DNA from: Mytilus californianus
Lineage: Eukaryota
Direction: 5' to 3'
Length of the DNA stretch: 64,000 nt
NCBI RefSeq assembly: GCF_021869535.1
Contig: NW_026262604.1
Coordinates: 56,482,001-56,546,000 of the forward strand
Position 1 is the first letter of the stretch. Every line of letters begins with the position of its first letter. The notes under the pieces are model-generated. The model worked only from the letters and a program-made list of their open reading frames with translations. It ran no database searches and was not told where the DNA came from. Both the position numbers and the translations under genes were made by a program. Below are positions 50,941 through 63,783 of this stretch, one piece after another.

Positions 50941-51723
50941 TCCTCTTCGAAAAAAAATAGTTAGAATGCCAAATCATAACATTAAAAATTGAAAACTTCG
51001 AAAGATTGTGCAAATACAGTTAAGGCAATCTATGCCTGGGGTAGAAAAACCTTAGTGTTTCGAATAATTCAACATTTATAACAGTAAATAATAAAAAAAG
51101 GAAGATATCAATAATATTTCATGTGAACACAAAAGTTTTGACTACACCACCGGTGATAAAATGCATTAAGTGCTTTCAGAAATGAACTAGAATTGCAATA
51201 ACCTATTTCTCAAAATTGTCACAAAGAAATAGTCAATTACATTTTCATTATGACATGCTTTTGTTATTTTTTCACGATTTTATGACAGGATTGGTAGTTC
51301 CATTGTATACAACACAATGTAGCCATTTTCATTCTTACTTAATCAATATGAAAAAAAAGCTTAACAGCTTGTTCATTAATTCAATTGTGTCATGATTATG
51401 AATGAAATTCTGTTTACTGTCATAATCATGAATGAAGTTACGTCTTTGTATACGCATGTTTTTATGAATGAAGTATTGAAAAGCTGACACAGTAGAGGAA
51501 ACAGATGTGGTTGTCGAATAAATACATGTAGTACATGGAAAATTGATTGCCATGCACTGGTCAAGGTAGAAAAACATGTACTTTTCTAAGTAACACACCT
51601 TTGGGTCGATTTCTTGAACTGTATAAAACATTACAATTTTATCCAAGACACATGATTAGAATGTTAGACACATGATAGTTAAATTGTAAATCTTACAAGA
51701 TTATGACCTTTCTTAAGAAATAA

Positions 51724-51872
51724 TTCTGTCATGCCATGCTATATGCTCATTTGAACATGGGTAGGCATTATATTTGTCAATATCTTTATACCGAGCGTTA
51801 GAGAGGTGTTAAATGTTGACAAATATAATGCCTACCCATATTAAAATGAGCATAGAGCATGGCATGATAGAA
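51724..51872. repeat. Long foldback palindrome
   Basis: About 65-bp arms (catgccatgct...ggtaggcattatatttgtcaa / ttgacaaatataatgcctacc...agcatggcatg); loop ccgagcgttagagagg. Confidence 0.9.
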
Positions 51873-52921
51873 GTATTTCGATTCTAATAGGAACATTTTG
51901 AACTTTTGTTCTTCGAAGCGGACCTATAATACACCCTCGAAAGGCAACCATTTGATTTGATGAACCAAAAACGTTATAGAAGATCTACAGTTTAACGATA
52001 AAAAATGAACAGATACATTTGAACTTACTTTTAGAATGATTTTATTTAATTTCCTAGCGAGCAACACCAACACATGTGTTCATTTTGTTCTCCGGTGTTG
52101 TTCAAAATACAACTGACGTCGCATTTTCAATTGTGACGTCAATCACGTGCAGCCCATGTTTTATTGGAATTAGAACATGGCTTTGTTTCCAATGCGAAAG
52201 AAGAACGTCATGTTAGAATTTAAAATAAATATCGAATATTTAGGAATATGATTAATTTCCTTTTCAGTTCACATATTTAAGTTTATTTTTTGCATAATTT
52301 GTTTATTACTGTAATTTCCATTTGTAAAGTTTGTTTCTACTCAAGAGAAGGGATGACCTCAGGGTAATTTTTCATAAAGTTTTCAGAATATTTGGTATTT
52401 GAAGCTTTTGATGTTTGTTTATAATTTGGCCTTCAATCTGTTTTGATTAAAGCGTCATTGATGAGCAATATGTAGAGGAAACACGTATCTAGCGTAATTA
52501 GTTATGATGATGAAATTTTACAGCTACTGGGTCGATGCCACAGCTAATGAAAGTTTCGTTGCAGATGGTATCACCAGTACCATAGTCAGTGTCCCTGTGC
52601 TGACATATCATATCATATCAATGATTCGGTCAATTATCCGTGCCTGTTTTAATTAAACTGTGTTTTATATCTTGCTTGCTGAAGCAATTCATGTTCTTTC
52701 CTTTTAGTATAGTTTTCAATATCATAGTGATTATATCGTAAATTGGTCAAAAGTCGTCATTTCTGTGCTTTTACTCAGTCGTTTGATGGTTTCAACCTTA
52801 TTAGTATTTTTGAAGATCCTGTGTTGATGGTTTTTTTTTGTACTATTTACAGTTTCTTTTTGTCTATTATTAAAAATAAATTTGAAAAGTAAAATTCCTA
52901 AATCGTATTTCAGGCCAATAA

Positions 52922-53180
52922 GGGACGACATCAAAAGATCAATGTAGGATAGAAAACTTAAATCAAATAGTTTGGGGGTGGGGGGGGGCGGGGGGGGGGG
53001 GGTTAAAATTGCTGCAAGTTTTGTTTATCCAAAATCGATTTTACATATATCCATATTGGTCAATCAATTTTTCCCAAATTAAGTTTAGAGGGGGGGGGGG
53101 GGGGGGGGGAGGGGGGGGGTCAGTGAAAAAACTATGTGAATTAAGTTTTTTATCCTACATTGAACTTTTGATGTCGTCCT
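52922..53180. mobile_element. PIF/Harbinger-type MITE, copy 1
   Basis: TAA flanks; long TIRs gggacgacatcaaaag.tcaatgtaggata; internal poly-G runs. Confidence 0.8.
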
Positions 53181-53567
53181 TAACTCATATAAGGAGGCAA
53201 TTGATTGTTTCAGTCAAACTGACACTTGTTTGAAGATACTGTAATGCTGGACATTGTTTTCGTTTTACAGTTTCTGTCTGTCTGTTATAGTTTTCCAAAA
53301 AGATAGGTAAACACATAACAATTGGCCAAAAACCATCATTATAGGCAATAAGGAGACAATAAATGGTGTCAATCTTATTGCATTTTAGATCTAGTTATCT
53401 TCTATTACTGTTTTCAAATCTATAGGCAAGTCAAACAATTTCTTCCTGGTCTTCTCACTTTCTTTCATTGGTCCACTCACTTTCTTTTTGGGCTACTCAA
53501 TTTTCTGATTCTAATGTGGTATGATCGACATCCATCAAAGACCAATTGACAAAGTTGTGATCAATAA

Positions 53568-53807
53568 GGGACGACATCAAAAGTTCAATGTAGGATAAAA
53601 AACTTAATTCACATAGTTTTTTTCACTGACCCCCCCCCCCCCCCCTCTTAAATTAATTTGGGAAAAAATGATTGACCAATATGGATATATGTAAAATCGA
53701 TTTTGGATAAACAAAACTTGCAGCAATTTTAACCCCCCCCCCCCCCCCCCCCCCCAAACTATTTGATTTAATTTTTTTATCCTACATTGATCTTCTGATG
53801 TCGTCCC
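53568..53807. mobile_element. Same MITE, copy 2, in inverted orientation
   Basis: TAA flanks; internal sequence is the reverse complement of copy 1 (poly-C runs). Confidence 0.8.
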
Positions 53808-53867
53808 TAACAGCTTACCGTATGGATTGCCACAATATATAAAACCCATACCTCATAGTAAGCCTTA

Positions 53868-55090: not shown

Positions 55091-57631
55091 TGTTAATTTT
55101 TATATTTAATTTCTATCGTTGTGAACTTCCTTTTCTCTGTAGATACATTCAAGTAGAACTTGTGTTAGATGGGCGGGTTAATATTTGTATTGGTGCATGC
55201 TGCCCAATCTTTAGTTATGTACAGTAAGTAAGTAAGTAGATCATTTATTATAGTGACATGTGTAGCATAAATAATATTACATATTAATAATACAATAGTT
55301 ATTTTAAATTACACCCGGCCCGTTGGAACTATAAGTCACTTTAAACTTAATGTTCATATTTTCAATAAGCAATGTGTATTAACTGTAACAGTTATGTTTC
55401 TTGTCATCAATTATCTCTTTGGTCATGTGTTTATCTGATTCTACAACTTATGGCTTTGATTTTTCTTTTGTTATCTTCTCTTTCTATTATCTAAATTTTA
55501 AATAAAAAAAAACAGTATTTCAGATTAATATGCTAACGATACACGTGGAAAAGATTAGTACATTTGTTTATGGTGCGCATGCTCGCAATATGTAGTTGTT
55601 GTGGTAACGAATTGTTTGCATTTCCCGAAATAAAAAATAAATATGACTCACGTATTTGCTGAGAATTAAAACAGTTGATGCACGATTTTTCCATTTATTC
55701 TTGATTACTAGTACTCCATATAATGTAAATGTAGGTAAATCAAAATTGTCAGAATACTGTGTTTACAATGTAATAATTTGCTTGCGGCAAGCTTAAAAGA
55801 AAATACTACTATAGAGTAAATCTGAACTAACCCATGAACAAAATTTGAAAAAGTAAAGACACACATTAAGGGAAATCAAATGTATGTTTAAGCCGAAACA
55901 AATGACGACAAAAGTCAAACATTTATAATCTTCAGCTTCATTTGACTTAAAAAAACAGGACTGTATAGAGTGAAAAATAAAAAGGCAGGACCGAATAGAG
56001 GGAAAAATAAAAAGGCAGGACAAAATTTTTCATCCTAGCCCCCCCATAAATCAAATGGTAGCTCCCTTTAAACGTTACCTGGAGAGTGTAAGTGAGAGAT
56101 AACAGTCAACACGGTGGACATGCGCACTGTCTAACTATATAAAATCCAAGATATCATATTACAAAATGTAACTATGAAGATTGTCATCGCTGTCCTGGGT
56201 AACATTGTGTACCAGTAATAAAACATGCTGAATTGGAACGGCCAATTTGATCTGATCAGCTCTGAAAAGACTAAACAATAAATCAAAATTATTTTCATCT
56301 TATATTTATAACAAAAATACATGTTGTACCTCATTCATTTTGTTGTTTTATTATTTCTTAATTTCAAAATAATTTGCTACATTTAATTCAAGTTATTGAT
56401 ATTACTAGTAACTATAACTCTTGGTTCAAGATACTTTCATCGAAAGACAATACTCACTTTCTATCAACAAATTAAAAGTATTTTACTTAGCGGAGTCACG
56501 GTCGTCATTTTGGTAAACCGAGAAAAGCAATTGTAAAATAAGTTACGGCGGTTAAGTGCATATATATGTCAATCATATCGGATTGGGGAAGACATTTCAT
56601 CGCACGCCAAGTACGTATTCCGTCCATGGTTTGAATTAAAGAACAAAAACTGAGGATGTCTGTTAAAATGGTTTACATCATGAACAGTATCTGAGAGAAA
56701 TCAATGTTAAAACAATCACCGTTTTAACAAAACTACAAAAATCCATTTTAATGACAAACACAATGTACATGTACACAAACATAGATTTTTTTTCTTTATA
56801 TCAATGACAGAGTATATTTCTCTTGTCAATAAGGTTCTATATTAATTAAATATTCCAAATGTTCTTAAATTTGTTTTGCAGTGGCTTACATACATTCACA
56901 CTGTTGATAAAAAGTAGAATATGTAAATACATCTAATATTTCTGTTCTTGAAAGATTATATATATATACCGCTTTTTATGACATGGAAAGTATTTATATG
57001 GTAATTTATCCGTGTAATTGGTATAAGTGAGGACTGGCCTGGACTTACATGACTTCATTTACGTTGTGTTATGAGCTACAAAGGTTCAACGTCCAATGAA
57101 CTTGCTCTGTGTTCTATTTAGGAAATTTATATAAAAACAACCCCCAGACAACACCCAATTTGGCAAACTTAATTCGTATACTTGGCCTAGTCGTTGTTAT
57201 AGATTCATCTAATAAATGTATTTATTATTGATTCTCCGATTATTTTAATATTTGCAGTGATTGTTTTATTGATTGCCCAAGTGCGAGCGGAAACCCGTGA
57301 TGAAAGAATGTAAACAAACGTGCACTGGAAGGTAAATAGTAAAAACGGATTCTTAAAGAACAAATTTATTACAACAAATCATTTAACAACTGTTAAGGAA
57401 ATGTTTAATTAACAAATGGGAAAGCATGGAAATAACAAAAAACAATATTCAAGGCTCTATCAATTTACTTATATGTCAGATGCTACACGTGCTATTTGTT
57501 GATTGTTTATCAATGTTAGTAATCTTCGGCAACAAACTCGAAAGTTAATTAGCTTGCGATCAATAATCACTTAATGAAATATTATGTGTCGATAATACGT
57601 AATACATCTGTAATAAATACCAAGTCTAGGT

Positions 57632-57721
57632 TAGTCTATAAAAAGGTATATACTATGAAATTTAGAGCGAGGGGCTTGCCCCGAGCTCTTAATTTCATAG
57701 TATATACCTTTTCATAGACTA
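57632..57721. repeat. Long foldback palindrome
   Basis: Arms tagtctat.aaaaggtatatactatgaaatt.agagc / gctcttaatttcatagtatataccttttcatagacta; loop gaggggcttgccccga. Confidence 0.9.
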
Positions 57722-58574
57722 TCCAATTTAGCACATATTTACAACTCGAGTAATCTTTTAATTGGTCTATTGATAGTTTATTTTGGCTGACTACTTATAT
57801 CACAGGTGTTTGTAAAACGGAGCTCATTAACGAAGTTTTGTAAATCTACTCACTAGTATCATTGTAAAATATGTTATTCCAAAAGGCCCTTGACTCCAGA
57901 ATGAAAAGATGGTAGCTGCTGGTGTAAGTATGTATATTGATATAAAGCGGTGTTTTACTATACATGTTCTTCTTACATGGTAAGATGACCAAATAAATTG
58001 ACCAAAAGCAGGCAATAATTAAATTGCAGTGGAAGCTTTACATGTTTTGAAAACATTTTTTAATTTCACAGTAAAACTAAAGCTATAATAAATTTGAAAC
58101 ATATAGATAGTTTGTCCCCATAGATATAGTCTAGCAGATAGGCATTAAAAAGCAACTACCAATAGATCACAGATTATAGGTTTTGTGTTTTTTTTTTTTT
58201 TTATTATTTCAAAGTAAAAACTAAAAGATTTATCAGAATATGTTTATATATATATATATATATATATAATTGGCACATTATCTTCAGACATAATCACAGT
58301 TTTTCAATTCATGACATCGTCCTGAAATGCATGAAATATTTGCCACTGGAAATTAAGCAACCGATAATCAATAAATCAATCAATTCATGACGAAATAAAT
58401 CACCTTCCTTAAGAAAGTTTAAAAAATTATCACCAAGTTGCTTTAATTTCCCCTTCACAAGGTTTCATAGTATTCACTTTTTGTGTACAAAGTAATTGCA
58501 TGGATGATACATTATCATAATTTTAAGATATCGTTGTACTCTAATCAAGGTATAAAGAACCATATGTATTACCC

Positions 58575-58677
58575 TTTATGTTCTTATTCAATACTTCAAA
58601 CGAACATAAAGCATTTACAAAGTAAAAACTCAACACAGTTTTTGGTTATCAGCTCGCCCCGACAGCACAGAAAGCTT
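58575..58677 (-). repeat. Split direct repeat B2 (103 bp)
   Basis: Identical to 59113-59215. Confidence 0.95.
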
Positions 58678-58885
58678 ATTTTTATTATAAACAATAAACA
58701 AATGTCCAATTTGCTGTCATCGACCGCTGCCATCACATATAAACACAATCTACAATAGAAAAATGTTCTATAAGTTGAAGAAAAAATCATTTCGATTTAC
58801 ATACATGTATTTTATCAACTATTTTCTACATAACATACTGATTCACATTCCTATGAAGTCTTAATAAAAGGGGTGGGTGGGTGGG

Positions 58886-59215
58886 AAAACGAACCTTTCT
58901 GTCGGATAGGCGAACCTCGAATGACAATTCTAGATATCTTATTATAATTTTAGCGCTAAAATTCTAGCATGAAGTTATCATGATTGATATAACTTAAACC
59001 GGTAATAACTTACTGATGGTCCAATCAAATTAAACATAAACATGTTTTGATTTAAACACACGTGTTAAAAGTAAACAAATACACGTGTTCCCGAGTAACC
59101 TTTATAAATACATTTATGTTCTTATTCAATACTTCAAACGAACATAAAGCATTTACAAAGTAAAAACTCAACACAGTTTTTGGTTATCAGCTCGCCCCGA
59201 CAGCACAGAAAGCTT
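58886..59215 (-). repeat. Internal B1-A2 junction (circle-junction template)
   Basis: B1 (59113-59215) and A2 (58886-59117) overlap by the 5-nt core TTTAT. Confidence 0.93.
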
Positions 59216-59266: not shown

Positions 59267-60282
59267 TTACAATCCTAAATTCTTAGATACTGACAATCTG
59301 TTGAGTATACTCTCTTTAACATAACCATCTTTGGCTTTATCACTTTTCCATCTCCCGTGTTTCTTAAACAACCGGTCATCTATTCCAGCTTCTGCCGCGG
59401 CAGTAGCTCCTCCTGACCTCAAACTATGTAAGCCAAACTGTTTTTTATCAAGACCTAAACTGTCAAGTGCAGATAACAATAACTCTCTGGCTCTGGTGTA
59501 AGAAATATGACTACTCTTTCTAAGTTTGTATATATTCAAAGATTTACAATAACAAATAGATCTAAAAATAAAATCATTCGATTCTTCAGGAATGTTAGCT
59601 AACTTTAGATAACGCTGAAGTACATCTACCGGGCATGTAATATTCCCTGTTTTTGAAATGACAACATCTTTCCCTTCCCTATATATATCAGTTTTACTCT
59701 TGACTAAATGAAGTGTAAGGTAAGTAGGGGAAAACTGTATATCAGACCTTCTCAAGTTAGCTAACTCGGAGAATCTTAAAAAGCCAGCATAGGCTAATAA
59801 ACACATACATGCTATTCTTACATCTTTTAAATTACAAGTATTATTAGCATATTTACATACAATATTTTTCAAAATATGCGGTGTGATAGGTTCTTTTTTG
59901 ACAACTGAATGACCTATTTTTCTATGAGCCCCTTCAAGAACAGATGCAACTAGATTATTTTCACTGGGATCAGCAACGCCAGCTAATTTATGTGCCCATT
60001 TTATGGCGTAAAAAGCATCATTTAATTTTGAAACCGATTTTGCAGTTTCAGACAAATGAATTAAATATAAAGAAATATGTAAATGAGATGCTGGCAATGG
60101 TGAAAAAGAATATTGACTAGTCCACTTACACCATGAATTGAAGGCATATCTATATTTCTTCTGAGTACTCGCAGCCTTGGACGAAAGAAGGAATTCTGGT
60201 AACTGTTTGAACAAACTGCTGAGATCATTATTAGAGGCAACTTGTGAATTAAAGTCTGACCAATGTCCTACTGAAAAAATAT
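59267..60282 (-). CDS. Tyrosine recombinase (YR) ORF, probably a spliced 3' exon
   Basis: Catalytic residues present: GFLRFSEL (R), KSKTD (K), HSLRSGG (HxxR), HGRW, DGY (Y). The track start at 60214 is TTG, not ATG. The frame is open up to a stop at 60311-60313, with splice acceptors at 60283/60282 and 60271/60270. Confidence 0.93.
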
Positions 60283-60400
60283 CTGAAAAACGTAAAATTG
60301 CAATAACATTTTATATACATATACAGAGGACGAATTATTAGCATATTTCAGATTTCTATACACAGTAAAATATAATATATATTCAAATATTTCAACGCCA

Positions 60401-60697
60401 GCTACAATATCTTTATAGATACTAGGGCCGTAAACTGTAAAACAAATTACCATGCCTGCTAAAATATCATTATAGATACTAGGGCCATGTCAAATAAAAA
60501 ACCAAGCCTGCTACAATATCATTACCGATACTAGGGCCATGTCAACATAAACACCCATGCCTGCTACAATATACATATACTAGGGCCATGTCACAAACAG
60601 ACCATGACTGCTACAATATATCTATATATATATTAGGGCCATGTCACAAACAGACCATGCCTGCTAAAATATATCTATATATATTAGGGCCATGTCT
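60401..60697. repeat. Degenerate minisatellite inside the retrotransposon (6 copies, about 47-57 bp)
   Basis: Unit gctacaatat...atactagggccatgtc...accatgcct repeated between the RT stop and the YR acceptor. Confidence 0.9.
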
Positions 60698-63131
60698 AAG
60701 ATGCATCTAGCAAAACAGCCAAAACTGGCGAACCAAACGGTTCAATTCCGAATATCGTATTCTTATTCGAACCTTGCTTATAAATACCATCAGTATTTTT
60801 AAACACAATAACATCTTTTACGTAATCTTGATAAATCAGATGTTTATCGAATATCAAAGGCCAGAATGCAGCAGAAATCCACTTAGGCACAACTAACGTG
60901 CCTCGAGCTTTACAAGCTATAGTGTGTTTAATCGATCGTATCACAAGATTAATTGGTGGAACTAGCCAATTATTTTCATTGGTCCAAACTTGAGAAAATG
61001 CATCAACTGCTTCAGAATCAGGTTGCCAAAATAAGGAGTTAAATCTCATAACTTTTCTATTTTCGACACTTGCAAACCTGTCAATCGAATAAGGACCCCA
61101 CATATCATTTAAAAAATTGAAAAATATATGTGTGACTCCCCAGTCCTCGAAATCAACCATTTTGCTGATATAATCAGCCTTTTCATTTTCTTTTCTGGGA
61201 ATCCATTGAATGTCAATTGATATTCCTTTTTGAATGCAAAATGAAAAAATAGATTTTGCTATAACATGAAGATTTTCTTTCATACTTCCCGAATTAACAA
61301 TTTTGACACAATTTTGATTGTCAGTAAACCACTTTATAGTTTTTCCTGTGAAACTATTCTTAAAAGAAAAAAGGGCCAACTCTATAGCTTTCAGCTCTCT
61401 CCATGTGGAGCTTTGTACCGTTTCACTACATGTCCACATCTTATGGAAAATCTTATTTTCTAATTCAACGGTGTATGCACCAGCGGCAATATTACTAGCA
61501 TCTGAGTATATGACAACAGAAGATTTACTGTAATGACATAAATTACGATAGTTAATCATGGTGACATTTTCTAACCAGAACTTTAACTCTGATAAAACCT
61601 CGACGGGTTTGTACCCTGTAATGGGAATATCCCACCCAATTCTACTTTCAATTTCCATGTAACAGAACTTTGACATAATTCTAGCCACATTTCCGATTAC
61701 GGGAGTCATAGAAATAATTCTACCTACAACCTGAGCTAAAGATCTAGCTGTAACATAGGGTAATTTAGCCAAAATTACATTCAATGAGAAAATCAAATCG
61801 TCAACTCGACGTTGAGTAATAGATAATTTGTATTCTTTCGAGTTCCAAACTATTCCCAACCATTCTAACTCGGTAACAGGTTTAAAAACAGACTTCTCCT
61901 CGTTAATAAGGAAACCAGCATCAATCAAAGACCTTTTTACGAAGGACGATTGCTCATTACATGTATTTTCATCTGGACTCATGCCAAATCCATCATCTAA
62001 ATACAAAACAACTTTTATACCGTTTCCACGCCAAAATTTTACTAGTGGCCTCAAACATTTAGTAAAAATGTACGGACCGGTAGTAATTCCGAAAGCTAAA
62101 ACAGTATAGCAATAAAATTGACCTTCCCACTGAAAACCTAAGAAAATCTGTTGCTGTGAGCATATGTCTAAGTGAAAATAACCAGATTTTAAATCAAACT
62201 TAAACAGATACATATCTTTGTCAAAATATTGTATAGCTAACTTCCAATCCTCAAATTTTATTTTTTCGCGCTTTATGTGTTTATTCAATTGACTCATATC
62301 TAAAATAAGTCGTTTCTTACCGGACTTTTGAGTAGCAACACTCAATGGATTTACCACATATGGTTGAAAAGGCACTTTAATTACGCAACCTATTTGAACT
62401 AAATCTTCAATTGACTTTGTGACAAATTCAGTATTCTGCCGTGCTGATCTATTATTTCTGTGGTACATTTTAAAAGGTGTATCTATAAATGGAATAACAT
62501 AACCATTTTTTATTGTATCAAGCACAAAAGGACAAGCACCTATATTTTCCCAATACTTTACATGACAAGCTAATCTACCTTTCACCCCTTTAAATTTATC
62601 ATATGACTGACAATTTTCAAAATATTGAACTTGATCTAAAAAAGATTCTATATAATCGTTATCAACAAAACATGTAGAAAATTGGTCATTAATAGTGTCT
62701 AAATACTTATCATTCACAATGACTGGAGAGTGACGTTCAGGCCCTACTTTACTACTTCTGGTAGGTTGTGGAGTTGCTGTTGGATGACCTGAGACTGGCG
62801 AGAAGAGGACAGTTTTTTCTCCAGTGGCCTTGTTGCTTGCAGTAGTGGCACGTGTCGATTGAGCAAGGCTCACGCCTTGCGAAGCTCCCACGAAAGGGCT
62901 GTTGCTGATTACGTTGATAATGCTGAGCGTAAGCAGGGTTACCATAAGATTCCGCAGGTTGTTGACGAGGCGGATTTTTTGGGTAAGGTTGCTGGCGAGA
63001 TTTTGACTTCTCCTTGGAGGTACGGATAGCTCTGGTCTCAGCTTGTCGTATCTTTCTCTCATCTTCAGAATCTGAAGCCACGGCATTGGATTCGTATTCC
63101 CTAACGGTTCCCCAACCAGCAGGGGAAGCAT
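60696..63131 (-). CDS. Reverse transcriptase / RNase H / DAM-like methyltransferase polyprotein (DIRS-type)
   Basis: 811 aa. RT: DLKSGYFHL, LAFGITTGP, YLDDG. RNase H: YSDAS, STWRELKAI, FTDNQN, WIPRKENEKAD. C-terminal MT-like region: IDRFAS...RFNS...DAF...NNWLVPP...GTLVVPKW. Confidence 0.95.
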   Translation of the reverse strand: MLPLLVGEPLGNTNPMPWLQILKMRERYDKLRPELSVPPRRSQNLASNLTQKIRLVNNLRNLMVTLLTLSIINVISNSPFVGASQGVSLAQSTRATTASNKATGEKTVLFSPVSGHPTATPQPTRSSKVGPERHSPVIVNDKYLDTINDQFSTCFVDNDYIESFLDQVQYFENCQSYDKFKGVKGRLACHVKYWENIGACPFVLDTIKNGYVIPFIDTPFKMYHRNNRSARQNTEFVTKSIEDLVQIGCVIKVPFQPYVVNPLSVATQKSGKKRLILDMSQLNKHIKREKIKFEDWKLAIQYFDKDMYLFKFDLKSGYFHLDICSQQQIFLGFQWEGQFYCYTVLAFGITTGPYIFTKCLRPLVKFWRGNGIKVVLYLDDGFGMSPDENTCNEQSSFVKRSLIDAGFLINEEKSVFKPVTELEWLGIVWNSKEYKLSITQRRVDDLIFSLNVILAKLPYVTARSLAQVVGRIISMTPVIGNVARIMSKFCYMEIESRIGWDIPITGYKPVEVLSELKFWLENVTMINYRNLCHYSKSSVVIYSDASNIAAGAYTVELENKIFHKMWTCSETVQSSTWRELKAIELALFSFKNSFTGKTIKWFTDNQNCVKIVNSGSMKENLHVIAKSIFSFCIQKGISIDIQWIPRKENEKADYISKMVDFEDWGVTHIFFNFLNDMWGPYSIDRFASVENRKVMRFNSLFWQPDSEAVDAFSQVWTNENNWLVPPINLVIRSIKHTIACKARGTLVVPKWISAAFWPLIFDKHLIYQDYVKDVIVFKNTDGIYKQGSNKNTIFGIEPFGSPVLAVLLDAS

Positions 63132-63528
63132 CAGCTATGCGTATTTTCTTATTACGGCTTTTGATCTTATCAGTTATGTCAAGAACTAATCTATAGGCTT
63201 GAGTATTGGAGTTAGGGATGAATTTTGAAAGTTTATTAACAGTGTCTAATAATTCCTCGTTAAAGGTGTACTGAATTCTGTTTCCTTCCCCCTTAAATTT
63301 TAGAGTGACGTCCTCCTTAATTTTTCTCTTAAGGCAATCTTGTTCTTGTATGAGTTCAGATTTCAACTCACCTAACTTGCTGTCTAAAATTGTCTTAAAA
63401 AGCTCTACAGTATCTACCAAATCAGACGACTTATCAGCTGCTTTATGAATATTAGGTGGCGGTAAACTATTGTCTCCTTCGAGTAGTATGTCTTCATTCA
63501 ATTCCAGACGTGGAGAAGATTCGGACAT
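62752..63528 (-). CDS. Gag-like protein with CCHC zinc knuckle
   Basis: 258-aa ATG-initiated ORF; CHYCKQQGHWRKNC fits CX2CX4HX4C. Overlaps the RT ORF by 380 nt in another frame. Confidence 0.92.
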   Translation of the reverse strand: MSESSPRLELNEDILLEGDNSLPPPNIHKAADKSSDLVDTVELFKTILDSKLGELKSELIQEQDCLKRKIKEDVTLKFKGEGNRIQYTFNEELLDTVNKLSKFIPNSNTQAYRLVLDITDKIKSRNKKIRIADASPAGWGTVREYESNAVASDSEDERKIRQAETRAIRTSKEKSKSRQQPYPKNPPRQQPAESYGNPAYAQHYQRNQQQPFRGSFARREPCSIDTCHYCKQQGHWRKNCPLLASLRSSNSNSTTYQK

Positions 63529-63551
63529 TTTACCAAGTGGCGATTTAAGAA

Positions 63552-63783
63552 AAAACGAACCTTTCTGTCGGATAGGCGAACCTCGAATGTCAATTCTAGA
63601 TATCTTATTATAATTTTAGCGCTAAAATTCTAGCATGAAGTTATCATGATTGATATAACTTAAACCGGTAATAACTTACTGATGGTCCAATCAAATTAAA
63701 CATAAACATGTTTTGATTTAAACACACGTGTTAAAAGTAAACAAATACACGTGTTCCCGAGTAACCTTTATAAATACATTTAT
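63552..63783 (-). repeat. Split direct repeat A1 (232 bp)
   Basis: Matches 58886-59117 with one substitution (atgtcaa vs atgacaa). Confidence 0.95.

Follow-up and report, generated by a model that had tools for sequence, protein, structure and literature searches.

An AT-AC intron and a +1 frameshift site proposed as the route to the enzymes of a PAT-like retrotransposon in Mytilus californianus

How is an enzyme made from a reading frame that has no usable start codon? The question is raised by a stretch of 64,000 nucleotides (nt) from Mytilus californianus (contig NW_026262604.1, positions 56,482,001 to 56,546,000; hereafter the window), whose minus strand carries a whole split-direct-repeat retrotransposon with the order A1-gag-pol-array-YR-B1-A2-spacer-B2 (Table 1). 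YR denotes a tyrosine recombinase, and pol encodes reverse transcriptase (RT), RNase H (RH) and a Dam-like methyltransferase (MT). An earlier reading of this DNA, made from its letters alone (the sequence-only reading), had proposed that YR is expressed from a spliced gag-YR mRNA in which a donor early in gag is joined to an acceptor at the start of the YR frame (63372^60282, last and first exon base). We propose here, with moderate confidence, that YR and Pol are reached through the splicing of an AT-AC intron and a +1 slip of the ribosome at a TTT CGT near the end of gag. The part of the earlier proposal that stands is splicing onto a conserved acceptor region that skips RT/RH/MT; 63372^60282 as the main route does not.

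The YR frame is open from 60310 to 59267 on the minus strand and is preceded by a stop (TAA, 60313–60311), as the sequence-only reading had it. The first methionine is indeed late, lying at residue 169 of the 347 in the stop-to-stop frame and not at about residue 134, a figure that fits only when counting from a later non-ATG start. As this methionine lies inside the catalytic half, YR cannot start normally.

A conserved probable intron between gag and YR

The element was compared with 60 stretches around YR matches of 44–100% identity (picked from 119) and with 21 metagenome contigs. Together with the window these form 32 clusters, here called families, 19 of which contain the gag end and the pol start and were scored; the other 13 are without these. 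In a tree of pol, 16 of the 19 families fall into supported clades of 9, 4 and 3, and the other three are unplaced. The clade of the window comprises nine families, and eight in counts of donors within gag, family 7 being omitted for want of a gag start.

A donor-like site was found 2–41 nt past the gag stop in all 19 scorable families. In the window it is an AT donor, G|ATAAGTAT, and an AC acceptor of the same phase precedes YR. Excision of the intron between them (62710–60292, 2,419 nt) takes out RT/RH/MT. The sequence-only reading mentioned neither the donor (62710) nor the acceptor (60292/60291), nor the TTT CGT site (62895–62890) described below. The donor ATAAGT is invariant in the clade (9/9 families), and is followed by A at position +7 in eight families and by T at position +8 in all nine. 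The lysine codon at the donor is AAG in every clade family, versus 26% of the lysine codons in pol. A fixed ATAAGT together with an invariant lysine codon suggests that the constraint is at the level of nucleotides. At the other end of the intron the clade consensus is A-C-R-T-W-T-T-W-C-A-G, with both AC and CAG invariant in 9/9 families.

Families outside the clade carry other donors at the same place, namely AG|GTACA, AG|GTATA or AG|GTAAT (five families) and A|GTTGAG or A|GTTAAG (four families); one unplaced family has G|ATGAGT after the gag stop. In all ten families with an AT donor, which is in phase 1, YR is preceded by an AC of that same phase. Among the eight families with a GT donor and acceptor data, seven have an AG in the phase of the donor (phase 0 in six, phase 1 in one). 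Just past the gag stop of L041, L044, L047 and L079 we observed the donor class GTTGAGTAT or GTTAAGTAT, which would presumably fit the U2 consensus with one T bulged out.

AT-AC introns of the U12 type have donors of the ATATCC type. We rejected U12-type splicing here, given the ATAAGT donor throughout the clade and the absence of a conserved block upstream of AC, where 49 further columns are common to just 3–8 of the nine families. The U12-type branch site lies 8–14 nt from the 3′ end of the intron (PMC1557818). The genome also contains U12 snRNA (three matches). The ends AT..AC and a donor that is U2-type apart from position +1 (G|ATAAGTAT, TTTTAC|) are features of the U2-type AT-AC introns, 24 of which were counted among 608,562 U2-type introns in five species (Sheth 2006; PMC1557818). 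Judged by these motifs, the intron is likely U2-type.

Database proteins offer a second view of the junction. NCBI proteins labelled as Mytilus californianus and 99–100% identical to the YR of the window open with 140 pol-frame residues, which pass through G-F-S-D into YR. For one of them, P0122, the single fitting one-intron boundary is 62711^60291, with AT..AC ends and no repeated letters at the ends. The same junction is used by 11 of the 14 stored proteins that have the YR start of the window family (in a tally drawing on 15 of 16 main-cluster members). The remaining three are one protein that uses a donor in RT, one with a three-residue start and one partial unspliced model. The RT donor, CCG|GTAAGA, had been pointed out by the sequence-only reading; it exists, in phase 1, with its intron starting at 62320 and not near 62260. 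Models in three further families fit the joins predicted for them: P0142 of the AT class, whose junction is less clean in that the intron ends share two letters, and P0183 and P0313 of the GT classes. The NCBI annotation pipeline draws on RNA alignments. In two models, P0002 and P0113, the YR of the window element is fused to unrelated sequence (with a PF00147 domain in P0002), possibly by splicing into host genes.

In two contigs of the comparison set, L072 and L073, YR directly follows gag and the RT/RH/MT segment is missing. The +1 frame of L072 is open for 396 codons, from a TTT CGG to the YR stop. The join aligns with the post-gag donor of L067 and with the acceptors of L067 and L071, which are unspliced (65–78% nucleotide identity). 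These contigs would be transcripts or retro-copies, either of which implies the splice. Intron-less DNA copies of the window family were not seen among 40 of 59 candidates, the scored gag-exon matches lying 2,987–4,216 nt from the YR match in 40/40. Two contigs (L071 at ~940 and L075 at ~390) have the gag zinc knuckle joined to RT about 270 codons into pol, by a splice or a deletion. In another, L078, positions 1–60 hold 34 nt resembling the 5′ part of gag directly before the YR acceptor position. We rejected this as a join of the gag 5′ part to YR, as a GT is missing at that place in L071 and the two parts are not in frame with each other.

Taken together, we consider it very likely that the AT-AC intron is spliced in Mytilus californianus RNA, on the strength of its conserved ends, the stored proteins and the intron-less contigs.

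A predicted +1 frameshift shared by Pol and YR

The gag stop is retained in the spliced RNA, and YR therefore needs the same frame entry as Pol. The pol frame is +1 relative to gag in 19/20 loci. In 18/19 families an in-frame TTT CGN, mostly after CCC, is found 123–210 nt before the gag stop; the nineteenth has CCC TTT CTT, and TTT C is thus present in 19/19. Other in-frame phenylalanine-arginine pairs are TTT CGN in only 1/11 cases, while TTT makes up 52% of phenylalanine codons and CGN 50% of arginine codons. From the shift site to the donor the +1 frame is without stops in 17/19 representatives. The donor of the other two is out of step with the shift site, which we read as an indel. Slippage of +1 has been mapped to UCC_UUU_CGU with an efficiency of ~1%, and CGN is preferred in related viral sites (Firth 2012; PMC3498833); the same slippage is reviewed by Atkins 2016 (PMC5009743). 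A +1 frameshift at TTT CGT is likely from this pattern of conservation.

According to the proposed mechanism, most ribosomes would make Gag (258 residues) from either RNA. A few would slip to +1 at TTT CGT near the end of gag and then read a linker of 61 codons. On the unspliced RNA the slipped ribosomes would continue into Pol, yielding a Gag-Pol of 943 residues; with the intron excised they would continue into YR, yielding a Gag-linker-YR of 613 residues. Both enzymes would carry Gag, which could bring them into the particle. The unusual donor is probably held at low strength so that the bulk of the RNA remains unspliced, serving as template and as message for Pol. We infer that all three donor classes are weak and that selection acts for this weakness.

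The same scheme may hold widely in this PAT-type group as a two-step switch, in which the slip gives Gag-linker and a single RT/RH/MT intron picks the Pol or the recombinase end; the literature searched describes such a switch for no retroelement. The clades would weaken the donor in three ways (AT with AC, GTACA-type and GTTGAG-type), and one clade would carry a multi-copy mobile U2-type AT-AC intron. We hold this general form to be only slightly more probable than not.

RNA evidence and competing explanations

Four sequencing runs were aligned to the element; one of them, X21, is raw RNA, of which 6% was read, and contig runs lose rare forms. X21 gave 41 reads on the element, too thin a coverage for a test of 63372^60282 or of 62711^60291. 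Unspliced sequence was seen in the contig runs. The one splice observed (60130^58749) leads from a GT donor within YR to an AG of the A2-B2 spacer and is present in six X21 reads and one contig of X1 (depth 13.6, the unspliced continuation having 13.4). The loose ends listed for X16 and X7, beyond which there are 12 more, do not include it. This splice drops most of YR together with B1 and A2. Of 12 family spacers, nine have an acceptor that passes the filter and eight a T-rich GTAG acceptor; the donor inside YR is not generally conserved across families. DNA copies with the corresponding 1,380-nt deletion were not found among the 40 of 99 candidates that were scored, all 40 of which have the acceptor intact. 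The splice may provide the terminal exon of a gag-pol RNA used for translation only, or it may be host cryptic splicing.

Several observations weigh against the combination of AT-AC splicing and frameshifting. No raw reads were seen across 62711^60291, X21 being without reads in the AT-donor bins, and in the X1 contig the sequence from 60130 to 63783 is continuous, through both the AT donor and its acceptor. The evidence behind individual NCBI models is not visible. L072 and L073 belong to a distant family, their library type is unstated and the comparison set contains no unspliced copy of the same family. In family 13 the nearest AG is out of phase with the donor, an in-phase AG lying further upstream. 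With three clades and three unplaced rows, the families lack independence and offer few independent contrasts. The test for an open +1 frame is weak: past the shift site there are 0 stops versus 6.9 expected, but the 150 nt upstream are depleted too (8 versus 17.8) and a control frame is likewise short of stops (32 versus 68 expected), the shuffle test being poorly calibrated. In 17 of 18 representatives an ATG stands in frame ahead of the shift site, which makes internal initiation conceivable. Finally, two low rates in series, one for the shift and one for the splice, would yield very little YR.

The route of the sequence-only reading, from 63372 to the AG at 60282, would need no frameshift and would give a protein with 52 residues of Gag. 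Its elements are present in the window: the donor TTAG|GTGAGT follows 52 codons and one nt of gag, the acceptors with exon starts 60282 and 60270 are both in phase 1 of the YR frame, and by arithmetic the join is in frame, with an intron of 3,089 nt and a product of 390 residues. The route could be the main or a second source of YR. Conservation divides its two ends. The AG is part of the invariant CAG of the clade, while AG|GTGAGT at gag codon 53 occurs in 1/19 families, the window's own. In the aligned families the position of the donor is thus not conserved beyond chance, and that of the acceptor is. Within gag codons 1–100, donors matching at least 8 of 9 consensus positions are all in phase 1 and occur in 5/8 clade families versus 0.6 expected, a count reached in 0/1000 shuffles; pol and YR are without such an excess. 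The threshold of 8 was set after the data were seen, and at 7 the excess is not significant (P 0.08). Moreover, these donors lie at non-homologous codons (13, 18, 45, 53 and 80) and 3/8 clade families have none. NCBI models of other families do join short gag exons to the AG (P0019/P0135/P0136, P0164/P0173 and P0186), yet 0 of the 14 stored proteins with the YR start of the window family use 63372, and none of them contains the gag N-terminus. No 63372 joint is listed in the four runs, although five X21 reads cover 63376, and the coverage is too thin to exclude one. We find this route unlikely as the main one and suggest that it may well be a minor second path beside the AT-AC splice. Two further candidate splices were rejected: a donor in the A repeat (63679), which is out of phase and not conserved, and a gag-to-pol splice from 63372 to an in-frame AG at 62794 as a general route to Pol, its acceptor being missing in most families.

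Another possibility is that the AT-AC splice is real and translation of the pol frame begins at an internal ATG, as in NCBI models that start at ATG 63131, giving enzymes without Gag. The upstream ATGs mentioned above lie in a +1 frame that is open there for 28–220 codons in 17 representatives, which would permit such a start. There is no ATG common to all families, however; in the close relative L053 the open stretch does not include 63131, families 5, 8 and 11 have stops in the 150 nt that precede the shift site, and the conserved TTT CGN would be left without explanation. This appears quite improbable to us. More sceptically, the motifs could be protein or other RNA signals and the junctions annotation artefacts or cryptic splicing by a silencing host, with YR made from unspliced RNA. 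Many different donors reach the YR acceptor in database models, the lone splice seen in RNA destroys most of YR and removes the B1-A2 repeats, and a few relatives have an in-frame methionine shortly before YR. Such a view is at odds with the fixed synonymous codons, with the way in which AT/AC and GT/AG change as pairs in keeping with phase, with the late first methionine in the window and with the intron-less contigs, whose join is in frame, and we judge it very improbable. AT-AC splicing combined with the TTT CGT slip remains our preferred account.

The element, its relatives and known systems

RT is supported by a match to RVT_1 (E 1e-15), and the RNase H-like match in the window pol is below its cut-off (E 0.002). 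Dam (PF05869) is the sole domain match in 6/6 pol C-termini, with E values of 2e-5 to 0.036 that are all below the curated cut-off. Both pairs of split repeats are also present in 11 of 18 other family representatives. A repeat occupies the same relative place in L061 (2888–3071) as the ~52-nt array does in the window. In the genome ~46 full-length YR matches at 99–100% identity were scored, among 119 matches, and from these near-identical copies we take the family to be young.

Table 1. Positions of the element's features in the window
Feature	Position	Strand	Remarks
Split direct repeat A1	63552..63783	-	232 nt; pairs with A2 (99.6%)
gag open reading frame, C-terminal zinc knuckle	62752..63528	-	258 residues; ATG at 63528; PF00098, E 1.8e-4, above its cut-off
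GT donor in gag (sequence-only reading)	63366..63372	-	last exon base 63372, phase 1; candidate second route onto the AG at 60282
pol frame (RT, RNase H, Dam-like methyltransferase)	60696..63134	-	+1 relative to gag
CCC TTT CGT in gag frame	62890..62898	-	predicted +1 frameshift site
+1-frame linker	62711..62894	-	~61 codons; common to predicted Gag-Pol and Gag-YR
Conserved AT donor	62703..62711	-	last exon base 62711, phase 1; 41 nt past gag stop
GT donor inside RT	62315..62321	-	first intron base 62320; one NCBI model (P0113) uses it
Degenerate ~52-nt repeat array	60379..60692	.	within the intron, between pol stop and YR acceptor
AC acceptor	60291..60297	-	intron ends at 60292, exon begins at 60291; phase 1
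AG acceptor	60282..60290	-	9 nt downstream of AC and in its phase; exon begins at 60282; pairs with GT donors
YR exon	59267..60291	-	no methionine ahead of catalytic half; PF00589, E 4e-13
GT donor inside YR	60124..60130	-	last exon base 60130; spliced to 58749 in RNA
Split direct repeat B1	59113..59215	-	
Split direct repeat A2	58886..59117	-	
A2-B2 spacer	58678..58760	-	AG acceptor (exon start 58749), then AATAAA at 58686
Split direct repeat B2	58575..58677	-	

Split direct repeats, a methyltransferase and a Gag zinc finger are defining traits of Pat1-like elements in the PAT group (PMC4157794). The window element has repeats in the order A1-B1-A2-B2, RT/RNase H with the methyltransferase after RNase H, a YR on the same strand and a Gag zinc finger. 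By these features it fits a young PAT-group (Pat1-like) retrotransposon of the DIRS order. We rejected an identity as Ngaro, which is defined by having no methyltransferase, as a Dam-like domain is present here. A Dirs1-like identity, with inverted terminal repeats and an internal complementary region, was also rejected, as the element is bounded by direct repeats only.

Two relatives carry tandem duplications, of the 3′ part (pol end and YR) in L048 (6072–7722) and of the YR end in L017 (6503–7301). Elsewhere in the window, positions 52916–53811 hold a cluster of direct and inverted repeats with long runs of G and C, resembling nested small fold-back elements, and 57629–57724 and 51717–51879 are inverted repeats that resemble hairpins, their arms being 47 and 67 nt long.

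In the literature searched, the translation of DIRS-order enzyme frames that have no start is unexplained, and exact sites are offered here for both Pol and YR. We found no splice or frameshift route to the DIRS/PAT enzymes in that literature, including the parts consulted of PMC9341512, PMC7192593, PMC6681497, PMC13465315, PMC3266345, PMC3783388, PMC9210276 and PMC8226300. If the proposal is true, an intron class that is very rare gains a naturally occurring example in many copies, for which sister clades offer GT-AG versions for comparison, and the UUU_CGN frameshift of RNA viruses is extended to retrotransposons. Many bivalve gene models named 'xerD homolog' would also be explained as transcripts of retrotransposons, with start codons that have probably been assigned wrongly.

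The element shares with the PAT group its A1-B1-A2-B2 repeats, RT/RH with a methyltransferase-like domain, same-strand YR and Gag zinc finger, and differs in the conserved pol-removing intron and the conserved +1 motif, no such route being described in the consulted parts of PMC4157794. Ngaro elements differ from it in being without the methyltransferase domain (PMC4157794, PMC3783388). Its intron resembles the U2-type AT-AC introns of SCN4A and SCN5A in its AT..AC ends and its otherwise U2-type donor, whereas those known are mostly from sodium-channel genes in mammals (PMC1557818). The intron described here spans 2.4 kb with a whole enzyme gene inside, belongs to a mobile element and would have to be spliced alternatively. 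The predicted frameshift is alike to the PA-X type in having an in-frame TTT followed by a CGN codon and a +1 frame that is open thereafter; the PA-X type is known from influenza A, fijiviruses, amalgaviruses and bee viruses (PMC3498833, PMC5009743). The preceding codon is mostly CCC here and UCC in the PA-X-type site. The +1 shifts of Ty1 and Ty3 take place at other sites. Retroviruses use one promoter, an unspliced RNA for Gag and Gag-Pol, a spliced env RNA and weak splice sites. The proposed scheme is similar in its use of one promoter, of unspliced versus spliced RNA and of weak splice sites. It differs in that the spliced RNA would keep the whole of gag and swap the enzyme fused to it, the shift is +1 and the downstream gene encodes the integration enzyme.

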